The notes: generated by a model from the letters alone, not told the origin. A stretch of 63,715 nt of DNA, filler included, from Collodictyon triciliatum (GCA_043381765.1; 11 parts of 11 records of this genome joined end to end with filler, not necessarily neighbours in it), one strand, 5' to 3'. Shown: positions 7,946-63,715, counted from the first letter of the whole stretch. A program made the numbers and translations.

Positions 7946-9707
7946 CATCCATCCAATTTTATTCCAACTTTCCAAGACTATGTTTACAAATATATTTTTA
8001 TAATTTCGTAATCAATGCGCTAATTTATCAAAAAATGCGTATTTCTCTATCGAGATATCAACTTCGATGATATATGGTTAATGTTAACTTATTAACTACA
8101 TCAACTCGTGCCGATTACAGCGGATTTGAGGGCGCCACAATGCGCGGTTCTGCACACAATGACCTATTCATCCAGAAGGGAGACCGTCTGGGAACTGTTT
8201 GTATTGCATCAATCCAAGCTGATATCCCTTATATATAATCGCCAACTTGGCCAAATACACCGCGCATTCCAGATAACCACAAGAAAAAAAATCTCGATAT
8301 TATTAATTTGCATGTCAATCTTTCATCTCATCAGGTCACAAACAACAGCGGCGGTATTCAAGGAGGCATTACCAACGGCGAAAATATCGTCATGCGCATC
8401 GCATTCAAGCCTCCAGCAACCATCGGGATGGCCCAAGTATGCACGACCGATTCCGATCCGCATAGACTCTTTTCTTTTTTCTGCACACTTATGCGAATTT
8501 GTGGTAGTAATCCCAGAGGCATATATAATCATTAATCCAATTTAACCAGGAAACTGCCACTTTTGACGGAACCCCAGCAACCCTAGAAGCCAAAGGACGC
8601 CATGACCCATGTGAGTAGCTGCCCTTTACTCTAATTTTTTTCTCTCTAACAATATATATATCTATAAACACATGATTTCACCCTTGTAATTTTTCTTAAT
8701 ATTTCGTAGTTTATCTATCATTCACCTCTTCTCCAATATTTTCTTCTTTGATTTAAACTGTATCTAATTTTTTAAAACTTATTCTATTTTACCTGCTACG
8801 CTTGCATCTTCACACATAAATATGGGCATAAACAAAAATATTGGCACATTTATAAATACATTCATAAATACATTCATAAACACAATCATAAATACAATCA
8901 TAAATACATTCATAAATACATTCATAAACACAATCATAAATACAATCATAAATACAATCATAAATACATACATAAACACAATCATAAATACATTCATAAA
9001 CACAATCATAAATACAATCATAAATACAATCATAAATACAATCATAAATACAATCATAAATACATACATAAACACAATCATAAATAAATTCATAAACACA
9101 ATCATAAATACAATCATAAATACAATCATAAATACAATCATAAATACAATCATAAATACATTCATAAATACATACATAAACACAATCATAAATACAATCA
9201 TAAATACAATCATAAACACATTCATTAATACGTTCATAAATACAATCATGAATACATTCATAAATACATTCATAGATACATTCATAAACACATTCATAGA
9301 TACATTCATAAACACAATCACCCACGCCTGAATATTCGCATCGCAAGACCTAACGCCCCTGCCTCACAGGCGTTGTCCCGCGCGCCGTGCCGATTGTGGA
9401 GGCGATGGCTGCACTCGTCCTTGCCGACGTGGCCCTTCTGCAGGAGGCGCGCATCCGCTCCATACAATGTCCCGGTCCCTCCCAAACTCATCCTTTCTTT
9501 TCTATCTTTTCTCCAAAGAAAAGCATCAAAGCGATTGCCTCAACAATACTCGATATTTTGTCTCGCCACGTCTGATGTGCGCCATTGATTATCACAGTTG
9601 TGGCGCCGTCAAACTTCCCGTCCGTCTCCTTCCCACACAAGAAGACTGCCGAGTCCAGCAAAACACAAGAGCCCAACGCCGACGAGAAGCCAGTCTCGAG
9701 CGAATAG
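6872..9707 (+). CDS. ARO2: Chorismate synthase (5' exons missing beyond contig start)
   Basis: Exons encode [95 protein letters not shown] and [26 protein letters not shown], all signature motifs. GT-AG introns. The last exon and stop at 9705-9707 are inferred. Confidence 0.97.
8852..9320. repeat. Intronic 12-bp minisatellite (ATAAATACAATC / ATAAATACATTC / ATAAACACAATC / ATAAATACATAC variants), ~39 units
   Basis: Directly visible tandem array inside the chorismate synthase intron 8611-9369; it generates the spurious ORFs at 8779-9346. Confidence 0.95.
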
Positions 9708-11206: not shown

Positions 11207-12358
11207 CTACAGGCAACAGACAGTATTATTTTTGACCTGAGCAACATAAAGTCTTCCATCAGGCCCAAATCTGCACCCGCTAGCTCCCTTGCATGATATT
11301 TTTCTGAGCAACAGGAACTCCTTACTGTAAAAGAATATTGACCCATTCCAATAATCCGTTACAATGAATCCACCACCAAAACTTCGGGCCATCCCATTTC
11401 CGTAGCATGTCGTCTCGATTTTATGCCTTTCAATGAATTGTCCATCTTGATCGAATACAAGGACAGCTCGATTACCGCCTTCGACGACCAAAAGTTGCTC
11501 TGAATCGTTTATAGCCAGGCCATAAGGTTCCCCCACTGGAGCTTTAGATGAGCTGTCTCCTATGTGGCATATAAAATCTCCATTCATAGAATACTTGAAC
11601 ACAGACCCTTCATTACAATCTGCAACGTAAAAACTGCCGTGCTTGTCAACAGCCGTGAAAAAAGGAGACATTATTTCAGGCTCTAGCGAAGCTTCACCAG
11701 ACATTCCATTCCACCAAACTGGGTTTCCACACATCCTTATCAATGTTCCATCCAAACGAAGAACCCAAATGCAACTTGGTTCGTTGCTGCAAGCAACATA
11801 GAGTCGTTCTCCATCGTTTGAAAATTCCAGCGACCGAGGGTACCTGAAATCAACACGTGCTTCCACCTTGAATACCTCAATAAACTCGAGATTCGGAGTG
11901 AAAACCTGGATGCGATTATTACCAGAATCTGCAACATAGACATTCCCTGTCGCAGGGTGGATAGCTAAATCATTTGGTTTGCGAAACTTACCCAGCTCCG
12001 AACCTTCACTGCCAACTTGAATTTTTATTTCCTCTGTTATCGTTTCCCATTTCCTTGGAATAGAATATCTCCCCGAATGAACAATCCTTGTCTTTGACAA
12101 TCCTGATTCCGAAGACACAGACTCATTTACAAGGTCAGCAATACGGTCCCAGGCTACATGGACCGGACGAACATACGACAGGTTTGCATGGAATGTGCTG
12201 TTTGTTGATAAACACGATTTCAAGACACTTAACCACGGGATGAATAATCCAGCCATATCTTTGTGTGAAGTTCGAGTGCGGGCGCGGGCATTCACTTGCA
12301 TAATGGCTCGAAGATAGTGAGACGAAAGGACGTTTTGTTGCTCAGTCAATCCATTCAT
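11207..12358 (-). CDS. Intronless NHL-repeat (beta-propeller) protein, 383 aa
   Basis: GSEGSELGKFRKPNDLAIHPATGNVYVADSGNNRIQVF and PYGLAINDSEQLLVVEGGNRAVLVFDQDGQFI are NHL repeats; single uninterrupted ORF. Confidence 0.85.
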   Translation of the reverse strand: MNGLTEQQNVLSSHYLRAIMQVNARARTRTSHKDMAGLFIPWLSVLKSCLSTNSTFHANLSYVRPVHVAWDRIADLVNESVSSESGLSKTRIVHSGRYSIPRKWETITEEIKIQVGSEGSELGKFRKPNDLAIHPATGNVYVADSGNNRIQVFTPNLEFIEVFKVEARVDFRYPRSLEFSNDGERLYVACSNEPSCIWVLRLDGTLIRMCGNPVWWNGMSGEASLEPEIMSPFFTAVDKHGSFYVADCNEGSVFKYSMNGDFICHIGDSSSKAPVGEPYGLAINDSEQLLVVEGGNRAVLVFDQDGQFIERHKIETTCYGNGMARSFGGGFIVTDYWNGSIFFYSKEFLLLRKISCKGASGCRFGPDGRLYVAQVKNNTVCCL

Positions 12359-13483
12359 TTTGTTTGCTGAAGCCCGGCAGCCATCAAGCTATGCGTTAAT
12401 AACCAATTAGAGGCCAGCTTCTGATCTGGGATTATTGTGACACTTTTTGTTTTCTTCGTCTATTAGATAAAACTTGTGATGAAGAAAGTGGTACTTGATC
12501 AAGCGCTCGTTTCTGCCAGAAAGCTACTTGGGCCATGAGTTTTTGGTAAAAGCTTATTATCTCAGAGTCTGCACCCTCGCAGAAACTCGCTATCTATTTG
12601 GAATGCTGTCAGTCAACTCTGTTCTTGTTGGGTCATAATGCTACAAGGGAAGAACACCTGATCGCTGCGCACGTCAAGCTCGCTCGCCCGGGCCCGAACC
12701 AAACTGATCTCTGCCATGATGGACTCCTTGGTTTGTCGTATGAAACAGCCTCAGTCTTTTCTCTCCCCCTCGCCCTCTCCTTTTCATGGTTATTTTGATT
12801 ATTATACTTTTGTTATTGTCACTGTTGTTATTATTGTAATTGTTGCAATTATTTTTTTTTTAATTCTTTAGGTGTTTCGATCAATTTTTAGGACGGATGT
12901 TTTTCCTTGCTGCTTCGGAAGTGATCTTTGTTTTGGTCCGCGCGCGTTCCAGCACAAACCGAAAAACCGATACTTGAATCAAATATCACAAAACAAAAAA
13001 CGAAAAACGAAAAACAAAAAACAAAAAACAAAAAACAAAAAACAAAAAACAAAAAACAAAAAACANNNNNNNNNNNNNNNNNNNNNNNNNNNNNNNNNNN
13101 NNNNNNNNNTTAATTAATTAANNNNNNNNNNNNNNNNNNNNNNNNNNNNNNNNNNNNNNNNNNNNTTTCATTTCTTTCATTTCTTTCATTTCTTTCATTT
13201 CTTTCATTTCTTTCATTTCTTTCATTTCTTTCATTTCTTTCATTTCTTTCATTTCTTTCATTTCTTTCATTTCTTTCATTTCTTTCTTTTCTTTCTTTTC
13301 TTTCTTTTCTTTCTTTTCTTTCTTTTCTTTCTTTTCTTTCTTTTCTTTCTTTTCTTTTGTCCTCTCATATCAATTATTCTATTGGTTATTTTTATTTTGC
13401 CTGTTCTTTGCTGGAGTTGTCTTCGCAGCTATCTACACAATGGTTTACATGAGATATATCCTTTCCCTGGGATGCAGTTCAGA

Positions 13484-31248: not shown

Positions 31249-32452
31249 CCTGCAAAAATCAAAAGTTGACAATGATGGAAGTACTGAAAAGGAATGCTCC
31301 CTTATTCATATGTTTTCGTAGAATCATGCAGATATAAGCGCTCTACAATACTGGAAATTATACAATATGGTTCTGAAATTTCGTAAACACAGCAACGAAA
31401 GCCTACATACTGCACCATATCATGCGGGTGTATATGTATCAACCAATGGTGTCCTTACTTCTTATGTGGTTCTACTGAATCTTTCTTGTTCTTGAATTGG
31501 TTCATGAAGCTTACACGATTCAAGAATCGCCTCCAAACCCAACAACCACACAAGACACTCTTTGGTCTGCTGAAGCCTTTGCATTCTGACGGGGATGGTT
31601 TCATGCAGAAAAGATAAAAATGGAGCTACTTGATGGTCTTTTGGTACGCAATAATGCTGGAGGGCTTAAGTATACAAGGCCTTGTGCGCATTATGGGTAT
31701 GATGTGGGTAAGCCTTGGAAATTGTATCTATGATGCTCCACTAGTCTTTGGGTGGTATGCAAGTAATGGGTGAGGTGCTCTTTGAAAGGATAATCGGTGC
31801 ATTTTTGATTGACATTTATTCATAAAGGTTAGTTGGGTATATGATAAGCAGTTTTCCTACAGTTCAATGCAGCAAACTCAAAGGAAAGGCATGGCTTTGA
31901 CTGGAATAGTCTGTCTAAATAGATTCAGCTGTACGATTGCCAAGCCTTCCCAAACAATCAATTTGATGATGAATTTATCTATCTACATCCTTGTATCCTT
32001 GAACTTTGAAAAAAAAAAATGTATAGGAGAAAGCCTATGAATAATTTTTGTCCCTCTAAAATCACATCATAAATCGCTCGATTGCGCTCTGATTGTGTCG
32101 TAGGTCTACTTTCAGAGGCCCAACAACTTAATTTTAAAATAGGAAAGATGAGCTGATAGATTTTTAAGGGAGCGGAGTCATTTGAGATATATGGTTGGTT
32201 GCGCACGCACAGAGTGATTTTGACCTCGCAGCTGATGAAAAATTACCCTTGGTGCTTTTGGCACACCTCAGCAAACAACCGCTGCTTGTCTGCTCTTTAT
32301 ACAAAAGAAATTAATAGCACAGAGTTATGATTGCGGCGTGTGGGTCCTGCTATCAGATGGGATTACCACAAACGTGTATTGACAGCGGCAAAAGCAACAC
32401 CACGCGGGCGAGTGCGCTCCATCTGGAGTTGCTTTGATAAAAAAAATAAAAC

Positions 32453-32525
32453 TGGAGCCGACGGGAATCGAACCCGCTGCCTCCCGCATGCGAAGCGGGC
32501 GCTCTACCATGTGAGCTACGACCCC
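32453..32525 (-). tRNA. tRNA-Ala (anticodon CGC), intronless, no encoded CCA
   Basis: GGGGTCGTAGCTCACATGGTAGAGCGCCCGCTTCGCATGCGGGAGGCAGCGGGTTCGATTCCCGTCGGCTCCA folds as a cloverleaf with G3:U70 Ala identity pair, anticodon arm CCCGC-TTCGCAT-GCGGG and TTCGA T-loop; T-rich tract downstream. Confidence 0.97.
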
Positions 32526-32662
32526 ATCTTGTTCAATAGGGGAAAATTGCATACTATGAAGTATTGATATAAATTTATTTTTTGTTTATTTTTTTTCCCA
32601 TTACTTCACTCTCTTTTGCTTTTTTGATCATCGCTTACGATATAACCGCAAACGCGAGCACG

Positions 32663-41160: not shown

Positions 41161-44100
41161 ATGCCACAAATTGGGGCTGGTTGGAGAACATTCTAGATCG
41201 ACCCACACCTTTGTATGTGTATAGTATTTGATAATATTATATGTGATTAAATATGTCGAGTAGAACTTGAGCAATTATTTACCCTTATAAATCTGTATTA
41301 TAATTATATTCCACAAATAATCATATCAGAAAAGTCTATCACAAACACCCGCGATCTGATGCGCCAGGTGGAGTCGCCGCGTCCTAAGCAGAGAGATTCT
41401 CCGGCGCAGTTGATTTGCAGGACAGGGTTCACAAACTTAAACAATCACCCCAACCAGTTTTCCTGTAGCCACGTAATTCCAGAGGATATCAAGTGATCTC
41501 AAATGTTCCGAGGGCTTCTTGCGCAAGGACAGTCACTGATTCAGAGCGCATCNNNNNNNNNNNNNNNNNNNNNNNNNNNNNNNNNNNNNNNNNNNNNNNN
41601 NNNNNNNNNNNNNNNNNNNNNNNNNNNNNNNNNNNNNNNNNNNNNNNNNNNNNNNNNNNNNNNNNNNNNNNNNNNNNNNNNNNNNNNNNNNNNNNNNNNN
41701 NNNNNNNNNNNNNNNNNNNNNNNNNNNNNNNNNNNNNNNNNNNNNNNNNNNNNNNNNNNNNNNNNNNNNNNNNNNNNNNNNNNNNNNNNNNNNNNNNNNN
41801 NNNNNNNNNNNNNNNNNNNNNNNNNNNNNNNNNNNNNNNNNNNNNNNNNNNNNNNNNNNNNNNNNNNNNNNNNNNNNNNNNNNNNNNNNNNNNNNNNNNN
41901 NNNNNNNNNNNNNNNNNNNNNNNNNNNNNNNNNNNNNNNNNNNNNNNNNNNNNNNNNNNNNNNNNNNNNNNNNNNNNNNNNNNNNNNNNNNNNNNNNNNN
42001 NNNNNNNNNNNNNNNNNNNNNNNNNNNNNNNNNNNNNNNNNNNNNNNNNNNNNNNNNNNNNNNNNNNNNNNNNNNNNNNNNNNNNNNNNNNNNNNNNNNN
42101 NNNNNNNNNNNNCCTCGAAGCAATTGTCAACATAATCGTTGAGGAGGATGCGGAAGTTGGGGATTTCCCTTGCTTGGAATACGTTCTTCAAGAAAAGATA
42201 TTTGAGACGCTGGTCAAATATGCCAGTGCTGACGTATGTACTCGTATATATTTGGGGCTTCTTGAAAGAAAAAATAAAAGAAAATCGATTTACATGTTCA
42301 TTTGCCATATATTGTCTATTTATCGATATTTTTAACATAGAAACCGAGAGGAATGAGAACTCATATATTTCATGTCCTGGATGATGTTATTGTCAGAGTG
42401 AAACAGCCGCTTATACCACAAATCAGTATCCATCGTTCAATAACAGAGCTGATGAGAGTTTTTGGGGATATTCAGGTTAAGGTTCGAGCGAGTTTATATC
42501 TCTGGCAGCATAGTAAAACATGCCATTTTGAAGTCCAGGATTAGAATCCATCATATGTTATCATAAAAATACACTCAAAAGGGTGTTTATTGAATTTGAA
42601 AGGAAGAAGAAAATTTAAAATCAAGTATACAGGGTTAACAGATCAATTGTTAGTTCTATAACCATCATCATAAAATCAAGGATTTGGAGGAAATCAACGC
42701 GTCAGTCAACTTCATTTCTACAATATGCACAAAACTACATGAAAAGCCTGCACTTGTGCGCGTCTTTTGCGAGCAACAAACAACAGGAGAAAAGGTTTAT
42801 ATATTGTATTTTATGTTCATCCAGAAATCCTGTCCATCAGATCATTTAATAAGTTCCATCTAACCAGCATGTCATACCAAGATATAACTAGATTTCCCTT
42901 CAACCCAGATATATCAAAATATTTTTACATTTTACTTTTCCTCCTTCGAATCGAATAAAGGAATTTTTTTTTTATACTTTTCCTCGAAAAAAAACCTTTA
43001 AAGCCATTAGATACTTAATTAGTATACAACTACAGAAATACGTCAGGTTGTTACCATTGTCCATCTTGCAGAAGTACATCCACCAGGGCGATAGCCTGGG
43101 GTCAAATGCTAGGTGTGGAACCGTTTGTTTACTGCAACTTTTGGACGATGATATAGTCGATGATGTTGTATCAAAGTCTGGATTCATTCCAATACTTGTA
43201 AGACATATATTGCCTATCATTCTGAGCTAGTAGTAATAATCTTCTACAGTTATAAACGAGCCATTAGTATTTTATTGATAAATTTGACTTGATTCTGTAA
43301 CACCCCTTTATTCATAGATGGACATTATTCAAAACGCTTACACACAGTTGCCTACAGATAAAATAATTGGGCAGTCTAATCCAGCTTTTGATTTCTATCA
43401 AGAACTCTTAATATTTTGTAACACGCTTGCACAAACAGGACATCCAGTAAGTTGTTTGCAAGTGACCATACCGTTATTAATGAGTTTTGATATTTGGTTG
43501 TGAGATACGTGACTAAGCTATGTTCTTAACCGGTGGTCTGGGTCTAAAACCAAAACAAAAACATATGTAGAAAAATATATCTCATTAGCTTTCTTCCGAC
43601 TTAGAAACTTGTGGATGCACTTGGAAATTCTCTGATGGTCCATTTTTTGAAAGGAATCATCCGACCTGCTTTGTTGCAAACGTGAAATAAATATATAAAT
43701 ATATAAATATATAAATATATAAATATATAAATATATAAATATATAAATATATAAATATATAAATATATAAATATATAAATATGTAAATATATAAATATAT
43801 AAATATATAAATATATAAATATATAAATATATAAATATGTAAATATGTAAATATATAAATATATAAATATATAAATATATATATAAATAAATAAATAGAT
43901 TTTATATTGGGGTCAGTAGATGTCTCAATGTAAATGGCTATCCTAGATTTCGAACCTTTCTTCCCTTCATCTCAATATAGTTCAGATCGTGCGGTCTGCA
44001 TCGCCATCCAATATGCCATAACCATAGTAGAAAGCCTTAGCAACGGAAAACTTGCCCAAAAGTATCTGCCATTCTTTTGTGATCAGGTTACTTCTTTTGG

Positions 44101-52599: not shown

Positions 52600-55500
52600 T
52601 CTATTTGGCATTCTATCGGGTAGCTGTCTATTGAAAGAGAAAATGAAAACAGGGCTGGGATTTTCATAGCTGAAATTATGATTGAGCTCCATTTTACATC
52701 AAAGTTCGCCAAATATGACAAAACTTGGAAATGTGTGGAGAGGGATTTCAAGATTTGAATATTTCCCGTTCTTGTCTGCCTTGATTGCTCTATCATGAAG
52801 AAAACGAAGGCAAGTGGAATAAAAAAGCTCAGGAAAATCAAGAATATGTTCACTCCTTTCGGTGGGCATTTAGTGCAATAGACACCAGTTTTTCCGTATC
52901 CATTTTCACAAACACTACATAATGGCCCAGTGTATCCATCAGCACAAGTTTTGTTTCCTCCGTTACATGCGTTTTCATTCAAGCATTTATAGGCGACATA
53001 TTCTCCATTTGTAGTTTGAGCCTGCCAATATCCAGTGGCAACAGTTGGTTGACTGGTTCCTTCACATTCAAATCCCTCAGGACATGTTTTACAATATTTT
53101 AATCCATAATCATCGCTGTATGTATCTGAAGGACATTCGTAGCAGTTTCCTTGCTTTTCATACCACCCTGGTTTGCATTCACAAGTGGAGTTTCTTAACT
53201 CAAATCCCTGTTTGCATTCGCAATCGGTTGAATTCATCGAACCGTTGCTTTTTGTCGTAAATTTATCGCCACAAGACAAGCAGAAATTTGTGCCGTTTGT
53301 TGGTTTGTATGAGCCAAGTCTGCACGGAACACACTCACTTCCATCCTCAAATTTTCCCGGAGGACATGTGCAAATGCCATCATGTGACACATAACTATCT
53401 AAGCACTTGCAATCATCTATTGATTTGGAGCCTTCTTTTATTGTGGTTGAGCGTGTCGGACATGAGCTGCATGATGCGCTTCTTTCTGAGCTGTAGCTTC
53501 CATTTGGACATGAAATGCATGACGAATTATCAAAAGAGCCAGTTTTGTTGTTGAATGTACCAGCTTGACACGATGTGCATGATGCTTGACCATCTCTATC
53601 ATTCCAAGTACCTTCTGGACATTCAATACATGATTTGTTTCCATATGAGCCGGAGTTTGAGTTGAATGTGCCTTTTGGACAAGCATAGCATGAGTTCGAG
53701 TCTTTAATGATGTCTTCTTTTTGATAGAGTCCTGATAAGCATAAGCTGCATGAAGCGCTTCTTTCGGAGCTGTAGCTTCCATTCGGACATGAAAAGCATG
53801 ATGATTGATTGTATGAGCCAGATTTGTTGTTGAATGTCCCAGCTGGGCATGATGTGCATGATGCTTGACCATCCTTATCATTCCAGGTACCTTGTGGACA
53901 TTCAATGCATGATTTGTTTCCGTAAGAGCCGGAGTTTGTGTTGAATGTACCTTTTGGACAAGCGTAGCGTGATTTTGAGTCTTTTATTCCTTCTTTTTGG
54001 TAGAATCCTGATAAGCATAAGCTGCATGATGCGCTTCTCTCTGAGCTGTAGCTTCCATTGTGACATGGTATACATGATGATTGGTTGAATGAGCCACTTT
54101 TATCGTTGAATGCACCAGCTGGACATGATGTGCATGATGCTTGACCGTCTCTATCATTCCAAGTGCCTTGTGGACATTCAATGCATGATTTGTTTCCATA
54201 TGAGCCGGGGTTTGAGTTGAATGTGCCTTTTGGACAGGCATAGCATGATTTTGAATCTTTTGTGATTCCTTCTTTTTGATAGAATCCTGATAAGCATAGA
54301 CTACATGAAGCGCTTCTCCGGCTGAACTGTAGCTTCCATTTGGACATGAAATGCATGATGATTGATCGAACGAGCCACTTCTGTTGTTGAATGTACCAAC
54401 TGGACATGGTGTGCATGATGCTTGACCATTTCTATCATTCCAAGTACCTTGTGGACATTCAATGCATGATTTGTTTCCATATGAGCCGGAGTTTGAGTTG
54501 AATATGCCTTTTGGACAAGAATAGCATGATTTTGAGCCTTTTATGAAACCTTCTTTTTGGTAGAATCCTGATAAGCATAGACTGCATGATGCGCTTCTTA
54601 ATGAGCTGTAGCTTCCGTCTGGACATGACATGCAGGATGATTGATTAAATGAGCCAGTTTTGTCGTTGAATGTGCCAGCTGGGCATGATTTGCAATCATC
54701 TCTGTAATCATTACCATAAGTTCCTGCAGGACATTTAACACATGATGATTTTTCTGTAGAACCAAATTTTGGGTTATAAGTACCATCTGTACAGTTGATG
54801 CACGAGTGTTGGCCGATATGTGGATTGTATGAGCCAGGCTGGCATAGTTCACACGTTGATTCGCCAGACTTTGATGAAAATCTTCCTCTTGGACATAGCT
54901 GACAGCCGCTTATACTCTTTGATGCAACATTGGGATTGTGGGAACCAGCCGGACATTTTTCACAGGTGATTGATTTTGTTTTGTTTGAGTAAGTTCCAGT
55001 GAGGCATGGACTACAAAATTGCTTTCCTTCCTCATTGATGAAATAACCAGCAGGACAATCGAAGCAGCTTGACTTTCCATCGACGCTGTTGTATGTTCCA
55101 GGTTCACATAGCAGACAGGATGAATTTCCAGTACCTCTGATGGTTGGATTGAATGTTCCTGCAGGGCATGGAGCACACAACTTATCTCCTGCATTGCTGT
55201 AAAATCCAGCAGTACAATTATTACACGATACTCAACCCTTGAAATTATTGAACGCTCCAGCTTCGCATTTTTTGCATACTGATTGGCCCAAAAGATAATT
55301 GTATGTCCCTTCCTCACAGAGAAGACAATCTATAAGGCTTGTTGAACCAGTTGATGGATTATAAGTTCCAGTTGGACATAATAAACAAGAGGTGAGCTCA
55401 TTTCCATTATTGTAAGAGCCAGTCGGACATTTTTCGCATGCATTTGATTGCTGGTTGAAAAAAGTATCCTCCTTGGCATGGACTCCAGACTTTGATAAAT

Positions 55501-56672
55501 GTGTCTGTGCTTGCTGAAATTATTTTCGAATCAAGAGTTGCAAAAACACAATTAACGGAACCGGTGTGACTCAAAAGTGTTCGAATTCCTCTTCCATCTG
55601 ATATTGTCCATATTTTGACTGATTTATCACTGCTTCCAGAGTACAGTTTTGTTCCATCAGTTGATATTGAAATGCTATTTAATGAGCTTAAATGTCCCAT
55701 GAGGGTTCTAATTAACATGCCATCTGATACGTTCCAAATTTTGATTGTGTTATCGCTGCTTCCAGAGAGGATTCTTGTTCCATCTGGAGAAGTAATGACG
55801 CATCTGACAGCATTTCCGTGACCGGTTATGGTTCCTATTAATGCTCCATCTGATAAATTCCATATTTTCATTGAAAAATCAGCACTGCCTGATATTATTT
55901 TGCTGTTATCAGGAATGATAAAAACAGAATTCACTCCTTTTGTATGTCCAGATAATGTTCGAGTTAAAATTCCATCTGAAACTCTCCAAATATTTATATT
56001 CTTATCATCGCCTCCTGATACTATAAGATAACTATCTGATGTTATTGAAACGCTTCGACCAGCTGAAGTATGTCCGCTTAATGTTTTTAATAGTAAACCA
56101 TCCGAGAAATTCCACATTTTTATTGTGCTATTACTGCTTCCTGACACTATTTTTGTTCCATCAGCCGAAACAACTACACTATTCACAGCACTTACATGGG
56201 CATTTATCGAAAGAGCTTGGGAACCATCGGCATAATTCCAGATCCTTACTGTGTTATCGCTACCTCCTGACACAATTTTCGTTTATCTGGGCTTAAAGAA
56301 ACGCTATTCACTGAAGTTGAGTGGCCTGAAACAGTCAAAATCAAACTGAAATCAGGAAAATTCCACAATTTTATTTATGTGTCATCGCTTCCTGACAAAG
56401 ATTTCGTGCCATAAGAGAGGACTGATATTCCATTTATTTGACCTCTATCTTCATTCACAATTTATTGTGACTCCATTAAAAAAATTACATATTCTTATAG
56501 TATTATCACTGCTTCCAGAAATAATCTTTGAGCCATCAGTAGAAATTGAAACAGTGTTTACTATTCCGGTGTGCCCATTGAGTGTGCAAATTAATCTCCC
56601 ATCTAACATGCTTGTTATTTTTATTGTCTTGTCACTGCTTCCAAAGACAATTTTTGTTCCATCTGGTTTTAT
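52600..56672 (-). pseudogene. Intronless WD40 + Cys-rich (GCC2/GCC3, ephrin-receptor-like) repeat + multi-TM protein gene, disrupted
   Basis: WD40 repeats (GH..SV..V....DG.KI.SGS.D.TIKIW) at 56672-55480, then CPAGTY-type repeats, then PTVATGYWQ..C..GYTGPLCSVCENGYG and TM segments. Lesions: frameshifts near 56282, 55460 (T6 run) and 54320 (+2), and an in-frame TGA at ~55232. Confidence 0.85.
53460..54690 (-). repeat. Near-identical internal tandem repeat, ~279-bp (93-aa) unit, ~4.4 copies
   Basis: Anchor TGGACA.G..TAGC.TGA recurs at 53676, 53955, 54231 and 54512 (spacings 279, 276, 281). Confidence 0.9.
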
Positions 56673-58330
56673 TACAACGTCCTTGTCAAATGTCTTTTCA
56701 ATTCGGTCCATAAACAATTGTTCACTTCTTTATATATTAACATACTGTCTCCATTTCATCTTTCGAAAAGTCACTTGTTCATAAAATCTGGAAAGATCTG
56801 TCTGGTATCTTGATTTCATAGATACATATTTTCGAAATTTTTCATTATCGACCGTTCATGAATTATGTTTACTAATTTGTCTCTAATCGATTAAAGATAC
56901 TGTCAATGTATCAAACTGCTGATTATCTTCAAAATTCGTAGCACCAAAAGAAATAGAATTTTGTAAATCTGCTGCCATGTTTATCCCTGAAGGCATTGCA
57001 CTTTTTTCTCGCGCAAGAGTATGTTGTGATTTTTAAGAGATTTGCTGTCATGTCTTGTTTGGTGTGCTGTGTAACATAATTTCTTACCTGTTTCATCCAC
57101 CATGTAAACCAAATTAAACTTACCTGTGTTCATTCCAACTATTTTTTTGTCGCTAATAAATAAAACTGCTCTACAGAAAGTTCATGTATATAAACATATT
57201 CTTGAGTTTTTGATTTTGATTGAATTTTGAATTTGAAATATCTTTCTTTTTCAAATAATAATAACTGCCAAGCTATCTGTTTGTATCATGTATTTAAAAT
57301 TGTACTCTGTTTGATGAAAGTCCTTCTTCTTCATTTCAAAGAACTCATCCCATAGTGTCTCCTTTCAACCTGATATATTCTTCAGTAATGATGTTTTTCG
57401 GACAATACTAATAGATATATCAAAAATGCAGTATCTTAAGTAATATGACATGATATATTGTTAGTTCTTATGGAGATTGGTTGAAACAGTTTGGTTCCGA
57501 TGTCCTCAAAAATGTGATTCCTGTAAATAAAAAATGGTTTGTACTTATTTGGATTGACTTTGACGTTATATTCGATACCATTTACAATATCGCTGGGAAT
57601 GATATGATGAAAATGCGATGTAGCCCATTATTTGTGTTTTTACGGTATTTCGAGATTCTTGAAGATGGCTTTTTTAACTTTTGTAACTCTTGTCGTGAAT
57701 AAAAAAAAACTTTTGTAACTCTGCCCTTTTTAATAGCATTCGTCATATTCTCATCTTAAGGATAATGTTTGATTTATAAAGCGCAATAGCCTCTTTACAA
57801 AATGTTCCTTAATTTTATAGTGTGATAAGCTGTTAACATTAGCTTTGCCAAGGACGGTAGTACACGAGACAGTCCAAACAATGGAAAGCATTCTTTTCGG
57901 GACAAAAGGAATAGAAAATCATAGAAATAAAAAGTCACAATGTCATCTCTCATAACTGGATTATTTTTTTTAATCTTGCGGGTCTATCTTGTGAAACTAT
58001 TCCGACTGACTTTAAAGCGTACAAAAAACTTTTCATCGATTGTTGGGAGTTGTGATTTCAATATGTAACATCTTGCAAACAGATAAGTGTCGGTAACCAA
58101 ATTATGGCACAATAAAACCGTATCGTTGATTTTGTCATAGTCATTCGCATTCTTTACAATCGGCTCCAGAGATGTTTTCACATTAAGATAGTCTGTTTTT
58201 ACAGATTTTAGATTCTCAAACTCAAGGCGTTTTCTTTTCTTCATTTGAACGTCTTTTTTTACTTTTTTTCTTTAGGAAACTACCGAGTTTTCAATTTAAT
58301 AAAACATTAGTCAATCAGTCAATTTAATGA
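56673..58330 (-). mobile_element. Fanzor1 element copy 1 (decayed; 3' part including RuvC-II/III deleted)
   Basis: ATG at 58244 gives MKKRKRLE..NVKTSLEPIVKN..KINDTVLLCHNLVTDTYLFARCY, then YMIQTDS.AV, KK/IVGMNTGKFNLVYMVDETG and RQY..K.EQLFMDRIEKTFDKDVV. Many frameshifts and stops; homologous to copies 2 and 3. Confidence 0.85.
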
Positions 58331-59766
58331 ATACAAACAACAGTATAAAATCAATTTATGTAAAATTAAGCATCTACCGAAACTTTCAAAATATGCGCAT
58401 TGTGGCAAACAAACACATAAAGTTTTTTTTAGTAAGTGATTGGAGACAAAACGCTGGGAGCTGATTCGGCGAGTTCGAAAGGACGGCGGTATAGCCATTG
58501 CAGCTGAAAGTCAAGATATCGGCCCCAAACAACATTATTATCGCCACAAGTGTGGATAGTGTGCTTTTTTGAAATGCATGTTTGATGGCAGGTTATAGGG
58601 TGGGTTCTGTCTGGGACAAGGTAAGGGCTTGTTTGTCATCCTTGAATTTTAATGATGATATTGTATAATGGATAATAAAATAAAAATTGATTATAGGAAT
58701 AGAATGAGATTATTAAGTATTTTTAATCTTTATTATATATACTAATCAAACTACTATATTATTCAGGTTGTTTCTTGGATTCATTAAAGCACTTGCTTTT
58801 GTCAACCCAGATTTAATTCGATGGTTGTCTGTGCAATAAACTGGACTATATATGTGTACACTTTCGTTGTATAGAAAGGTTGTGTTTTGAAAGGGGTAAA
58901 ACCAACCTCGTCACAACCTTTGTTATGAATTTTATCCATTTACAGGCTGAATGAGACCGAAGATAAATGAAAAGAAAAAGAAAAAGAAAAAGAAAAAGAA
59001 AAAGAAAAAGAAAAAGAAAAAGAAAAAGAAAAAGAAAAAGAAAAAGAAAAAGAAAAATAGAAANNNNNNNNNNNNNNNNNNNNNNNNNNNNNNNNNNNNN
59101 NNNNNNNTTAATTAATTAANNNNNNNNNNNNNNNNNNNNNNNNNNNNNNNNNNNNNNNNNNNNAAAAGAAAATAAAAGAAAATAAAAGAAAATAAAAGAA
59201 AATAAAAGAAAATAAAAGAAAATAAAAGAAAATAAAAGAAAATAAAAGAAAATAAAAGAAAAGAAAATAAAATAAAAGAAAAGAAAAGAAAAGAAAATAA
59301 AAGAAAAGAAAAGAAAAGAAGAAAAATGAAAAAAATGAAAAAAATGAAAAAATGAAAAAATGAAAAAAATGAAAAAAATGAAAAAAGAAAAAAGAAAAAA
59401 AGAAAAAAGAAAAGAAAAATGAAAAATGAAAAAAGAAAAATGAAAAATGAAAAATTGAAAATGAAAATGAAAAAAAAAGAAAAAGAGAAGAATGAGGGAA
59501 AACGGCCAGGGAGATTCATTTGCCAGTGAGCAGACTGGTGATCATTGGCAAAACACCGTATTGGCACTGCAACAGACGCGAGATAGCCGGTCGTGCGACT
59601 TGTCGCATTACTGGTATGCAGGGAAGCATTAGCACAGAATTTTTAAAAAAAATTCCAGAATAAACCACCGTTACTTTTTAGTGATGTCGTCTCCAAACAT
59701 GTCGCGTTTTCTGCGTTTACATAAATTGTATGGCACAAACGGCTTCACATGCTCTGTTTTATAGTC

Positions 59767-59890
59767 CTAGGCTGTAAGATATACCAATCAAAAGATTGGT
59801 AAACGTGGTGCGCTAGTATCAAAGGTCTCACCACTTTTTTTCACAAAGATTGTGTAGTGGTGAAGGCTGCCAGGAAAGACCCGACAGCCT
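59767..59890 (-). ncRNA. Candidate Fanzor omega-RNA scaffold (three stem-loops, possible pseudoknot)
   Basis: Just 3' of the RuvC-III region: AGGCTGTCGGG-TCTTT-CCTGGCAGCCT (59890-59864), TCACCACT..CACAA-TCT-TTGTG..AGTGGTGA (59863-59828), then GACC complementary to GGTC of stem-loop 1, then TACCAATC-TTTT-GATTGGTA (59801-59782). The position is where TnpB/Fanzor omega-RNAs lie; boundaries are inferred. Confidence 0.6.
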
Positions 59891-61670
59891 ATTTTTTAAA
59901 AGAAGGTGTATGCATATTTTGAAGGATTGAAAGTTCTTTGTTGAGTATATTTTAGCGCTGTTAAAGTCCCTTGTCAAGAATATAGTTTGTTTGCTTTCTG
60001 GGCGATTGCATTCTTTACATATGGGACATCTATACACTTTTTTCCTATTTCCTTTCAGTGTCATATATTACAGTTCTTTTTCGCAGATACAGCACACCTT
60101 GGAGGTTCTAAATTCATCTGCACTAACTGTTTCAAAAAGTTTGGATAGTATTTTTCGTAATCCTCTTCTGATTGTTGGCATAAAATGCTTCATCTGAGAT
60201 TTTCTGCTCCAGTCTCCATACGCCAGTACAACATCATCGCCCAAATGTCTTTTCGATTCGGACCATAAACAATTCTTCACTTCTTTTTGTATTAACATAC
60301 TGTCTCCATCTTTGAATCGAATAAAGGAAAAAAAAAAAAAAAACATTGTCTCCATATCATCTTTCGAAAAGTTACTTGTTAATAAAATCTGGATAATTCT
60401 ATCTGGTATCTTGATTTCATAGGTATATATTTTCGAAATTGTTCATAATCGACCGTGAATGAATTATGTTTACCCAGTTCTGTCTCTAAATCGATTAAAG
60501 ATACTCTTGATGTCTTAAACCGCTGATTCTCTTCAAAAGTCCTGTGACCAAAAAGAAATAGCACTTTGTAAATCTGTTGCCATGTATATCCCTGAATCAT
60601 TGTAATTTTTTCTTTTTTTCTCGCACAAGAGTATGTTGTGATTTTTAAGAGGTTTGCTATCATGTCTTTTTTGGTGCGGTGTAACGTAATTTCTTACCTG
60701 TCTCGTCCACCATGTAAACCAAATTAAACTTGCCTGCGTTCACTCCAACTATTTTTTTGTCGCTAATAAAGATAACTGCTCTTCGGAAAGTTCATCTATA
60801 TAAACATATTCTTGGGTATTTGGATTATATTTGAATTTTGAATTTGAAATAGCTTTCTTTTCAAATAATATTGACACCGCCAAGCCGTCTGTTTGTATCA
60901 TATATTTTAAATTGCAGTCTCTTTGATGAAGGACTCTCTTCTTCATTTCAAAGAAATTATCTCATAGGGTCTCTTTGCATCCTGATATATTCTTCTTTAA
61001 TACTGTTTTTCTAGTTGATCCTAATACATCTATCAAAATGCAATATCTAGAGTAATATGACATGGTATATTGTTAGTTCTTATAGGGATTGGTTGAAGCA
61101 GTTTGGTTTCAATGCCCTCAAAAATGCAATTCATGTAAATCAGACACGGAATGTACTTATTTGGATTGACTTTGATGTTATATTCGATACCTTTTACAAT
61201 ATTGCTGGGAATGATATGATGCAAATGCATTGTAGCCCATTCTTTGTATTGTTCCAGTATTTCGAGATTCTTGAAGATGGATTTTTTAACTTTCGTAATT
61301 CTGCTTTTTTAATAGCTTCCGTAATATTCTCATCTTTAGGAACTGTTTGATTTACAAAGCACAGTAACCTCTTTACAAAATGTTCCTTAATCTTATTATG
61401 ATAAGCTGTTAACATTTGCTTCACCAAGTACGGTAATACATGAGACAGTCTAACCAACGGAGAGCGTTCTTCTTGAGACAAAAGGAATCGGAAATCATAG
61501 AGATAAAAAAAGTCATCATGTCATATTTCATTTCTGGTTTTTTATTTTTTTTTTTAAAAAAAACTTACGGGTCTATCTTGTGAAACTATTCCGACGGTCT
61601 TTAAAGCGCACAGCCCCCCCCCCCCCCCCCCCCACCTTTTTAAAAAAAAAAAAAAACTATCATAGATTGT
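59767..61670 (-). mobile_element. Fanzor1 element copy 2 (decayed; 5' end lost at gap, 3' end present)
   Basis: YMIQTDGLAVSILF, RuvC-I VGVNAGKFNLVYMVD, VVLAYGDWSRKSQMKHFMPT, RuvC-II ADEFRTSKVCCIC, second Cys pair CPICKEC and RuvC-III TRDFNSA: the TnpB/Fanzor1 motif order. Confidence 0.9.
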
Positions 61671-61784
61671 CATCTAAAAAAAAANNNNNNNNNNNNNNNN
61701 NNNNNNNNNNNNNNNNNNNNNNNNNNNNTTAATTAATTAANNNNNNNNNNNNNNNNNNNNNNNNNNNNNNNNNNNNNNNNNNNN

Positions 61785-61829
<45 letters not shown>

Positions 61830-61834
61830 TTTTA

Positions 61835-63660
61835 TTAAATTGACTAATTGATTGAAGTTTTATTAAAATTGAAAACTCGGTAGTTTTCTAAAGGAAAAGG
61901 TAAAACAAAGACTTTCAGATAAAGAAAAGAAATCGTCTTGAGTCTGAGAATCTAAAGTCTGTAAAACCAGACTATCGAAATGTGAAAACATCTCTCAAGT
62001 TGATTGTAAAGAATGTGGATGACTATTACAAAACCAACGATACTGTTTTGTTATGTCATAATTTGGTTACCGACACTTATCTGTTTGCAAGATGTTACAT
62101 ATGGAAATCACAACAACTCCCAACAATCGATGAAATAGTTTTTTTTTTGTACGGTTTAAAGACAGTCGGAGTAGTTTCACAAGATAGACCCTCAAGATTA
62201 AGAAAAAAAAAACCAAAAATGAGAAATGACATGATGAGTTTTTATCTCAATGATTTCCGATTTCTTTTGTCCCCAGGAGAACGCTCTCCGTTGGTTGGAC
62301 TGTCTCGTGTATCATTGTGCTTGGCGAAGCAAATGTTAACAACTTATCGTAATAGCATTAAGGAACATTTTGTAAAGAGGTTTCTGCGCTTTATAAATGA
62401 AACAGTACCTAAATATGAGAATATTACGGAAGCTATTTAAAAGACAGATACAAAAGTTAAAAAAAGCCATCTTCAAGAAACTCGAAATACCAGAGCAATA
62501 TAAAGAATTGATTAAACGCATTTGCATGAATCATTCCCAGCGGTATTGTAAATGGTATCGAATACGACGCCAAAGTCCATCCAAATAAGGACATTCCATG
62601 TCTGATTCACATGTATTGCATTTTTGGGGCATTGGAGCCAAACTTTTTCAATCAATCTCTATAAGAACTAACAATATACCATGTTATATTACTCAAGATA
62701 CGGTATGTTTGATAGAGCTATGTATTAAGCGGAAAAACATCATTAATGAAGAATATATCCGGATGCAAGGAAACCCTATTGGATGATTTCTTTGAAATGA
62801 AGAAGAGGGTCTTTCATCAAACAGACTGCAATATTTAATACACAATACAAACAGACGGCTTGGCGGTGTCATTATTGTTTGAGAAGAAAGGTATTTCGAT
62901 TTCAAAATTCAAGTATAATAAAATATAGTTCCAAGAATATGTTTATATAGATCAACTTTCCGAAGAGCAATTTTCTTTATTAGTGACAAAAAAAATAGTT
63001 GGAGTGGATGCAGGTAAGTTTAATTTTGTTTACATGGTGGACGAGACAGGTAAGAAATTACGTTATACGGCTCACCAAAGACATGATAGCAAATCTCTTA
63101 ATAGTCACAAAATACTCTTGCGCGAGAAAAAAGTAAAGTACAAGGATTTTGGGGTATACATGGCAACAGGTTTTAAAAGTGATATTTCTTTTGGTCAAAT
63201 GACTTTTGAAGAGAATCAGCAGTTTGAGACATTAAGAGTATCTTTAATCGATTTAGAGACAGAACTGTGTAAACATAATTCATACCGGTCGATTATGAAT
63301 AATTTCGAAAATATGTATCTATGAAATCAAGATGTCAGATAGAATTATCCAAACTTTATGAACAAGTAACTTTTCGAAAGTTGGGATGGAGGCAGTATGT
63401 TAATACAAAAAAAGTGAACAATTGTTTATGGACTGAATCGAAAAGACATTTGGCAAGGATGTTGTAGTGGCCTATGGAGACTGGAGCAGAAAATGTCAGA
63501 TGAAACATTTTATGCCAACAATCGGAAGAGGATTATGAAAAACACTATCCGAACGTTTTGAACAAGTTAGTGTAGATGAATTTAGAACCTTCAAGATATG
63601 CTGCAACTTCGAAAAAGAACTGGAATACATGCCACCGAAAGGAAATACAAAAAAAAAAAA
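61835..63660 (+). mobile_element. Fanzor1 element copy 3 (decayed; homology fades into A-rich sequence near window end)
   Basis: Same 5' leader as copy 1 (ATTAAATTGACT..TTGAAAACTCGGTAGTTT), start codon mutated to ATA, NVKTSLKLIVKN, intact RuvC-I KKIVGVDAGKFNFVYMVD, VVVAYGDWSRKCQMKHFMPTIG and RuvC-II SVDEFRTFKICC. Multiple frameshifts and stops. Confidence 0.9.
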
Positions 63661-63715
63661 AAAAAAAAAGGAGTAAAGAAGTGTAAAAAGTAAAAAAAAA
63701 AAACACACAAAAAAT

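Follow-up and report, generated by a model that had tools for sequence, protein, structure and literature searches.

We describe three related segments that lie in a stretch of 63,715 bases from Collodictyon triciliatum (GCA_043381765.1; hereafter the window, meaning the whole stretch that was analysed) and carry the remains of a gene of the Fanzor1 nuclease type. The window is not one locus, as it consists of 11 assembly pieces chained via N44-TTAATTAATTAA-N44 spacers; the first nine pieces measure 6464–6483 bases, the tenth 2521, and the eleventh is cut at the window end. Copy 1 lies near the end of piece 9 (52600-59063), copy 2 on piece 10 (59164-61684) and copy 3 on piece 11 (61785-63715). 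In pairwise blastn comparisons, the three are 81.8–88.3% identical at the nucleotide level over segments of 273–1269 nucleotides (nt), far above chance, and they align over about 1.4 kb in common. The three homologous segments of the original prediction are borne out by these comparisons; when copy 2 is used to search the window, nothing matches outside the three segments except a homopolymer of 27 nt.

The extents of the copies are given relative to their best relative, P0003, an intact protein of 648 residues from metagenome assemblies that starts MKKRKRQ. Copy 1 (56670-58331, minus strand), as placed by blastn, tblastn and a frameshift-aware alignment, covers P0003 codons 1-518, with a start ATG at 58244 that is preceded by an 87-nt 5' leader (58245-58331, minus strand) common to copy 3; it is truncated on its 3' side at 56670-56673, where it passes directly and in the same frame into a WD40 repeat. 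Copy 2 (59844-61613, minus strand; 59716-61613 with its 3' flank) covers codons 78-642. Its end at 59844 is a frame reading, the frameshift-aware alignment stopping at 59853, and its first ~77 codons are missing, the copy being truncated on its 5' side at poly-G on a piece that ends in poly-G and low-complexity sequence. Copy 3 (61831-63655, plus strand) has the 5' leader followed by codons 1-580 and runs into poly-A at 63655, around codon 580 and just short of the window end. None of the three window copies has both ends.

The motifs listed in the original prediction were found in the window translations at their places and in their order. The basic N-terminus MKKRKR is read in copy 1 (58227-58244, minus strand), and copy 3 has IKKRNR in its place (from 61919, plus strand), an ATA replacing the start ATG. 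VKTSL follows in both (58167-58181, minus strand, and 61982-61996, plus strand), and IQTDG is found at 60884-60898 (minus strand) and 62845-62859 (plus strand), with IQTDS in copy 1. At RuvC-I, copy 3 reads VGVDAG (62998-63015, plus strand), copy 2 VGVNAG (60732-60749, minus strand) and copy 1 VGMNTG (57122-57139, minus strand); the catalytic Asp is thus kept in copy 3 only, copies 2 and 1 having NAG and NTG. YGDWS is present at 60206-60220 (minus strand) and 63473-63487 (plus strand). At RuvC-II, copy 2 reads DEFRTSK (60098-60118, minus strand) and copy 3 DEFRTFK, with the Glu about six residues before the zinc finger (copy 2 DEFRTSKVCCIC, copy 3 DEFRTFKICCNF); this region is missing in copy 1. 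The complete CxxC...CxxC zinc finger followed by RDxN occurs in copy 2 only, as the Cys pairs CCIC (60074-60094, minus strand) and CPIC (60008-60031, minus strand) and the RuvC-III motif RDFNSA (59954-59971, minus strand). In copy 3, one Cys of the zinc finger is changed to Phe and the sequence ends before the second Cys pair.

On sequence comparison, this gene is a Fanzor1 at the family level. P0003 aligns colinearly with all three copies by tblastn (E 1.4e-141 for copy 3, and 8.9e-68 and 1.4e-56 for the other two). At E<=1e-3, 30 longer relatives were obtained among 235 candidates from the protein collection, together with 521 clusters from a representative library. A profile built from 24 relatives and compared with the PDB matches the solved Fanzor1 proteins SpuFz1 (8gkh, E 1.6e-75, profile positions 3-608 of 622), PpFz1 (9cf0, E 2.1e-74) and GtFz1 (9cer, E 2.8e-54), with no TnpB or Fanzor2 chain at E<=1; the only other rows within this limit are two unrelated proteins, at 0.084 and 0.47. 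Invariant across the 24 relatives are D364-P365-G366, E555 (the Glu of (N/D)EFRTSK) and R603-D604-N606. Furthermore, the C-terminal piece of copy 2, with TAA read as X, matches PpFz1 directly (E 8.2e-7) across YGDWS...DEFRTSK...C..C, where GDDVVLAYGDWS...DEFRTSKVCCICEKEL of the window is aligned with GADAVLVLGNWS...DEFRTSSFCPKCESDL of PpFz1. The assignment to Fanzor1 in the original prediction is upheld by both the profile and this direct match, and the D-E-D residues and the Cys pairs are found in register with solved Fanzor1. NCBI and ENA gave only four short fragments (63–88% identity), a search for closer fragments only two (71–72%), and a metagenome scan for the locus of P0003 itself gave a single distant locus of 21% identity.

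SpuFz1 of Spizellomyces punctatus is described as an omega-RNA-guided double-stranded DNA endonuclease (Saito et al. 2023, PMC10432273), and the window family resembles it in size (~600–650 residues) and in having in register the RuvC-I D(P)G, the Glu of ...DE(F/Y)(R/K)TS... before the zinc finger and the RuvC-III RDxN. The window copies, on the other hand, are pseudogenes of which none has all three catalytic residues, and the intact members of their family come from metagenomes and giant-virus contigs, whereas SpuFz1 is fungal. A pair of kinked helices in REC2 is given as a structural hallmark of Fanzor1 (Yoon et al. 2023, bioRxiv 10.1101/2023.08.09.552727), and the alignment of the N-terminal half with SpuFz1 speaks for a putative pair of this kind in the window family. 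PpFz1 of Parasitella parasitica, the sole solved protein matched directly by a window piece, is longer than the window family; the profile matches it in two stretches about 110 residues apart. With TnpB (of IS200/605 and IS607) and Fanzor2, the family has in common the split RuvC and zinc finger, the logic of an OMEGA-type guide RNA and a weak match to PF07282 (16.6–24.4 bits); it exceeds TnpB in length, however, and its alignment extends over the N-terminal region of Fanzor1.

None of the three copies contains a protein-capable open reading frame (ORF). A frameshift-aware dynamic programme, used to align each copy with P0003, gave 7 frameshifts and 9 in-frame stops for copy 1 (508 aligned codons, 57% identical to P0003), 10 and 5 for copy 2 (559 aligned codons, 60% identical) and 6 and 5 for copy 3 (571 aligned codons), that is, not a few but 11–16 disabling lesions per copy. 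The 19 in-frame stops are of all three kinds (TAA 9, TGA 7, TAG 3) and stand opposite many different residues; therefore, no single codon reassignment opens the frames. Scans of ORF length under alternative genetic codes were uninformative in this AT-rich DNA. The frameshifts are of both signs, and most of the frame-breaking length differences are private to one copy, among them a 46-nt insertion at about 60312-60357 (minus strand) in copy 2 only, which is T-rich and partly repeats the adjacent ATGGAGACA.... Neither tblastn nor the frameshift-aware alignment shows intron-like or GT..AG-bounded gaps relative to the intronless P0003. Each copy also carries its own substitutions (143, 91 and 92 private ones in 1441 three-way columns), and the differences between copies at codon positions 1, 2 and 3 amount to 0.129–0.157, 0.114–0.121 and 0.112–0.163. 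These values are flat over codon positions, and the divergence and decay are thus neutral. Judged by their sequences, a working nuclease from any of the three copies is now impossible.

It had also been proposed that an intact ancestral frame could be rebuilt from the N-terminus of copy 1, the RuvC-I Asp of copy 3 and the C-terminal part of copy 2. In this form the proposal does not work: every one of the three stretches contains several breaks of its own, one frame break is common to copies 1 and 2, and the last ~65 codons are present in copy 2 alone, where they are broken twice. A frameshift in copy 2 follows directly after RDFNSA, the true tail NILNKELSIL... being in another frame.

Candidates for the outer parts of the element were sought around copies 1 and 2. 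A putative left inverted end, TTTACATAAATTG, lies at 58352-58364 (minus strand), 108 nt upstream of the ATG of copy 1, and a putative right inverted end, CAATTTATGTAAA, at 59716-59728 (minus strand), downstream of copy 2. The two form a perfect 13-nt inverted match, the best in the region searched and the only candidate for terminal inverted repeats (TIRs) in the window, and they have the terminal TTTACA...TGTAAA in common with the right ends of the viral relatives described below. The region 59716-59900 (minus strand), comprising the last ~70 coding bases of copy 2 and ~128 nt downstream, is a candidate omega-RNA scaffold: as a single sequence it is predicted to fold at -53.2 kcal/mol (z -3.81; 1 of 200 shuffles as good) into three long hairpins. 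The 3' flank is present in copy 2 only and the region has no second copy in the window; the fit to an omega-RNA scaffold comes from one sequence. The original prediction had seen no transposase, and this agrees with a tblastn search of the window with the DDE_3 transposase of the viral relatives, in which the best match had E 1.1 over 15 residues.

Among the relatives whose surrounding DNA is available, the closest lie on giant-virus contigs. Of 265 pattern-matched stretches from IMG/VR, 226 encode a relative, and 77 loci were kept (L001-L077), their proteins being 28–47% identical to P0003. The nearest ESM Atlas clusters consist to 92–100% of viruses, most commonly Nucleocytoviricota, and carry PF26935 (DUF8286). 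A complete ORF of 593–706 residues with an MKKKK-type start is present in 35 of the 36 viral loci examined, and the viral genes resemble the window family in their basic N-terminus and in carrying the same motifs. In 10 loci, a unit that begins at about -460 relative to the ATG and extends to about +80 past the stop codon is 87–99% identical while the flanks are unrelated, and this unit ends in inverted repeats of ~28 nt. Sharply bounded viral units are seen in L009-L029 (for example, L009:5480-7930) and at L001:4630-7950. More widely, a right end A(A/G)GGTGTA stands 44–147 nt past the stop codon in 34 of 36 viral loci, with a 22-nt inverted partner upstream in 24 of these 34. The viral inverted ends, of ~22–28 nt, read TACACCYTTGAA...TTCAARGGTGTA, and the right ends finish ...GGTGTAAA, akin to the TGTAAA of the candidate end in the window. 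No matching target duplication was found beside the 10 aligned viral ends, the left flank being mostly TA and the right mostly AA; a TTAN duplication is described for the SfAV-type Fanzor1 element (bioRxiv 10.1101/2023.08.09.552727). In 34 of 78 loci, the nuclease gene is preceded by a gene for a divergent transposase of the DDE_3 (Tc1/mariner-IS630-like) type (51.4 bits, cut-off 28.6), and in 37 loci a small ORF of 116 residues lies just upstream of the nuclease gene. The viral units differ from the window copies in being intact and in having inverted ends, the 116-residue ORF and DDE_3, none of which could be detected among the window sequences.

The 3' end of the viral units (the last ~150 nt; A3, A4) is conserved across distant lineages, reading TTGATTTTAC ... 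TTTAAATGTTCAARGGTGTA. Within it, 10 pairs can form between a stretch TTTACAC(T/C)TTT and the right end itself, and in 17 of 20 diverse viral units a hairpin of varying sequence occupies one place just before TTTTAAAT. This 3' end has the look of an omega-RNA scaffold in which the inverted end is taken into the last stem; as a tentative mechanism, the right inverted end may pair with an internal TIR-like stretch to give the guide-adjacent stem of the omega-RNA. Covariation here was judged by eye and from single folds; RNAalifold, run on the long alignment, returned only 10 pairs, and on an ungapped 48-nt set it found none, because loop lengths differ. A similar arrangement is described for virus-borne Fanzor1, namely a simple non-autonomous unit with short TIRs, the TIR forming part of the guide-adjacent stem (bioRxiv 10.1101/2023.08.09.552727). 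In a quick tree (SH-aLRT, that is, the Shimodaira–Hasegawa-like approximate likelihood-ratio test; midpoint root; 58 rows, 25 of them of unknown origin), the three copies group with P0003 in a starred clade, whose branch is long and stands among lineages with viral rows, a position that hints at exchange between virus and host. A scan of prokaryote genomes gave six distant relatives of 22–31% identity on small contigs of metagenome-assembled genomes (MAGs; L079-L084) and none that was close. These six are filed under bacterial MAGs of Flavobacterium, Planctomycetia, Chitinophagia, Fonsibacter and others; relatives on bacterial contigs are judged mis-binned or recent transfers by Yoon et al. 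(bioRxiv 10.1101/2023.08.09.552727).

Homology, the register of the motifs, the lesions and the neutrality of the decay are all observed directly, and from them we conclude that the three segments are very probably old, independently decayed pseudogenes of one Fanzor1 mobile element, which has no transposase of its own in the window. The intact protein would have had ~640 residues, with a basic N-terminal tail resembling a nuclear localisation signal (NLS), a REC/WED region and a split RuvC, to which RuvC-I would contribute the Asp, RuvC-II the Glu six residues before the CxxC...CxxC zinc finger, and RuvC-III the RDxN. By homology to SpuFz1, the ancestral protein may be supposed to have been an omega-RNA-guided double-strand DNA endonuclease, presumably with a guide RNA encoded by the gene's 3' end together with the right end of the element. 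A transposase from another locus would have mobilised the element in trans; among the giant-virus relatives this role would fall to the DDE_3 enzyme of Tc1/mariner-IS630-like type. The element thus pictured resembles, by description, the SfAV-type element, which is given as a simple non-autonomous transposon ~2 kb long, with short TIRs, one Fanzor1, no transposase, and a 3' guide RNA scaffold running past the right end, as the layout in the window suggests (bioRxiv 10.1101/2023.08.09.552727).

Several observations weigh against this conclusion. At the level of domain profiles, Pfam gave no family below E 0.1 on seven raw ORF pieces (two unrelated families at 0.1 were under the cut-off), and PF07282 reached 16.6 bits against a cut-off of 26.3 on the stop-bridged C-terminal piece of copy 2. 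Two signatures of Fanzors are named by Yoon et al. (bioRxiv 10.1101/2023.08.09.552727), the DPG motif and a Glu that precedes the zinc finger by six residues; no window copy has the DPG, as Pro is lost in all three, and the motif may already have been altered in the source copy. Copies 1 and 2 both have an A run one base shorter just before RuvC-I, which breaks the frame, as well as Asn for the catalytic Asp, and the lesions are therefore not all independent. Either these two copies descend from one that was already dead, or the homopolymer change arose twice; the copy that spread may itself have been dead. As for the ends, the 13-nt inverted match lies within chance (score 26; shuffles with mean 20.5, standard deviation 2.6 and maximum 31), and a profile of the viral 3' end finds nothing better than E 3.2 in the window by nhmmer. 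Finally, the piece boundaries and the poly-G and poly-A ends are signs of a poor assembly, and frameshifts in homopolymers may partly be errors.

The last point can be carried further, to the proposal that the genes are intact and active and that the breaks come from sequencing or assembly error, introns, a variant code or programmed frameshifting. The fragmentary assembly with its poly-G and poly-A ends, the position of several frameshifts in A or T runs and the introns reported in some eukaryotic Fanzor genes (PMC10530073) are in its favour, but it would have to account for 19 stops of all three kinds opposite many residues, frameshifts of both signs that are mostly copy-specific, a colinear alignment to the intronless P0003 without GT..AG-bounded gaps, a divergence that is flat across codon positions, and the loss of the start codon in copy 3 and of the catalytic Asp in copies 1 and 2. 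We regard it as highly improbable. We give even less credence to copy 1 being part of a domesticated fusion gene of a Fanzor N-terminal region with WD40 repeats, a reading that comes close to being negligible. The truncated copy 1 does continue in frame into WD40, and an ORF of 88 codons (56451-56717) crosses the junction; however, no more than 14 codons of this ORF precede the junction and it closes after its 88 codons, the Fanzor part upstream has 7 frameshifts and 9 stops, position 56670 is bridged by none of the metagenome contig pieces listed, and the junction may stem from a deletion or from chimeric assembly of the contig.

A different origin is proposed if the copies are taken as endogenous viral fragments, that is, giant-virus DNA integrated into the host genome and not a transposon multiplied in the host. 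This would agree with the intact relatives lying overwhelmingly on giant-virus contigs (the 226/265 IMG/VR stretches), with the 92–100% viruses in the nearest ESM Atlas clusters, and with the branching of the window copies and P0003 among lineages with viral rows, although that tree is quick and midpoint-rooted and 25 of its 58 rows are of unknown origin. What speaks for a transposon, on the other hand, is that the three copies have diverged separately, with 6–10% private substitutions each, that they lie on three pieces without any other virus-like gene, and that the viral gene itself sits in a discrete unit with inverted ends, a transposon movable between virus and host; the Cys-rich/WD40 gene adjoining copy 1 also has no IMG/VR relative, which is a weak negative. 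We thus consider viral fragments improbable and retain the reading as decayed transposon copies. In a wider form of the latter, the copies would be fossils of traffic between giant viruses and this one freshwater eukaryote, a Nucleocytoviricota-borne lineage of Fanzor1 transposons having once multiplied in the host. This is a tentative proposal, which we hold to be possible though doubtful; if true, such relics could tie uncultured giant-virus lineages to a host group.

Everything seen here fits published descriptions of Fanzors, and in itself the finding matters little. Fz1 is described from fungi, protists, arthropods, plants and giant viruses (PMC10432273). Fanzors are reported to be multicopy, with up to 122 per genome, to be associated with transposons of the Mariner/Tc1 and other types, autonomous ones as well as non-autonomous, to carry an NLS in ~60% of cases, and to have introns in their genes in some eukaryotes (PMC10530073). 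Multicopy and non-autonomous Fanzors, giant-virus carriers and the association with Tc1/mariner are thus already in print in these sources and in bioRxiv 10.1101/2023.08.09.552727, and the window clade may already stand in published lists of Fanzor loci. The practical gain is one of correction: the copies here are relics and no longer alive, while the same clade has natural members that are intact, namely P0003 and the ORFs from giant viruses, and can therefore be studied without any rebuild. Furthermore, the clean bounds and the conserved 3' end of the viral units could guide a search for the omega-RNA.

A high genomic copy number had been expected from three copies in the window, and this is not supported, as the three pieces adjoin in the record and are no random sample, and database fragments are few; since the repeat-bearing pieces are neighbours, their closeness says nothing on copy number. 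Two freshwater-metagenome DNA runs contain 0.05–0.06 of the sampled words and short relatives of piece 9; the sequencing runs listed include none of RNA. Contigs from both runs give many short pieces, 85–99% alike, over the Fanzor part and the Cys-rich repeats, and no contig piece from either run spans the stretch, so that they give neither a copy number nor the ends, nor do they test the junction at 56670. These contigs pile up on the Cys-rich repeats. Some of them cover 58381-58860, a hint that similarity may extend upstream beyond the putative left end.

The neighbour of copy 1, outside the element, is a WD40-repeat coding region at 55407-56717 (minus strand; Pfam WD40, E 4.9e-53) with a repeat period of 126 nt (family D5). 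The frame running across the junction reads MFMDRIEKTFDKDVV on one side and IKPDGTKIV... on the other; the junction could be a deletion or a chimeric contig. The whole of 52600-56717 (minus strand) is a long, apparently intron-poor coding region with several frame changes, in which numerous Cys-rich repeats of the Ephrin_rec_like family (E 1.1e-47) come after the WD40 part, with a hydrophobic C-terminal part behind them. For this Cys-rich/WD40 gene there was one database match, with none in IMG/VR.

Simple sequence is found at the piece ends, at 58935-59063, 59164-59500, 61614-61684, 61785-61830 and 63656-63715, consisting of (CTTTT/CTTTTT)n-type microsatellites, poly-G, (ATT)n and poly-A, and probably explains why the assembler stopped there. 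An additional run of 560 N occupies 41553-42112, and the G+C content per 2-kb window is 0.30–0.44. Elsewhere in the window, a tRNA-Ala (anticodon CGC) at 32452-32526 (minus strand) is the sole Rfam or ARAGORN match, and an open frame of 383–393 codons at 11207-12388 (minus strand), on an unrelated piece, is the second or third longest. A short-period tandem repeat at 8779-9346, which is open in several frames on both strands and yields low-complexity 'proteins', is probably a minisatellite.

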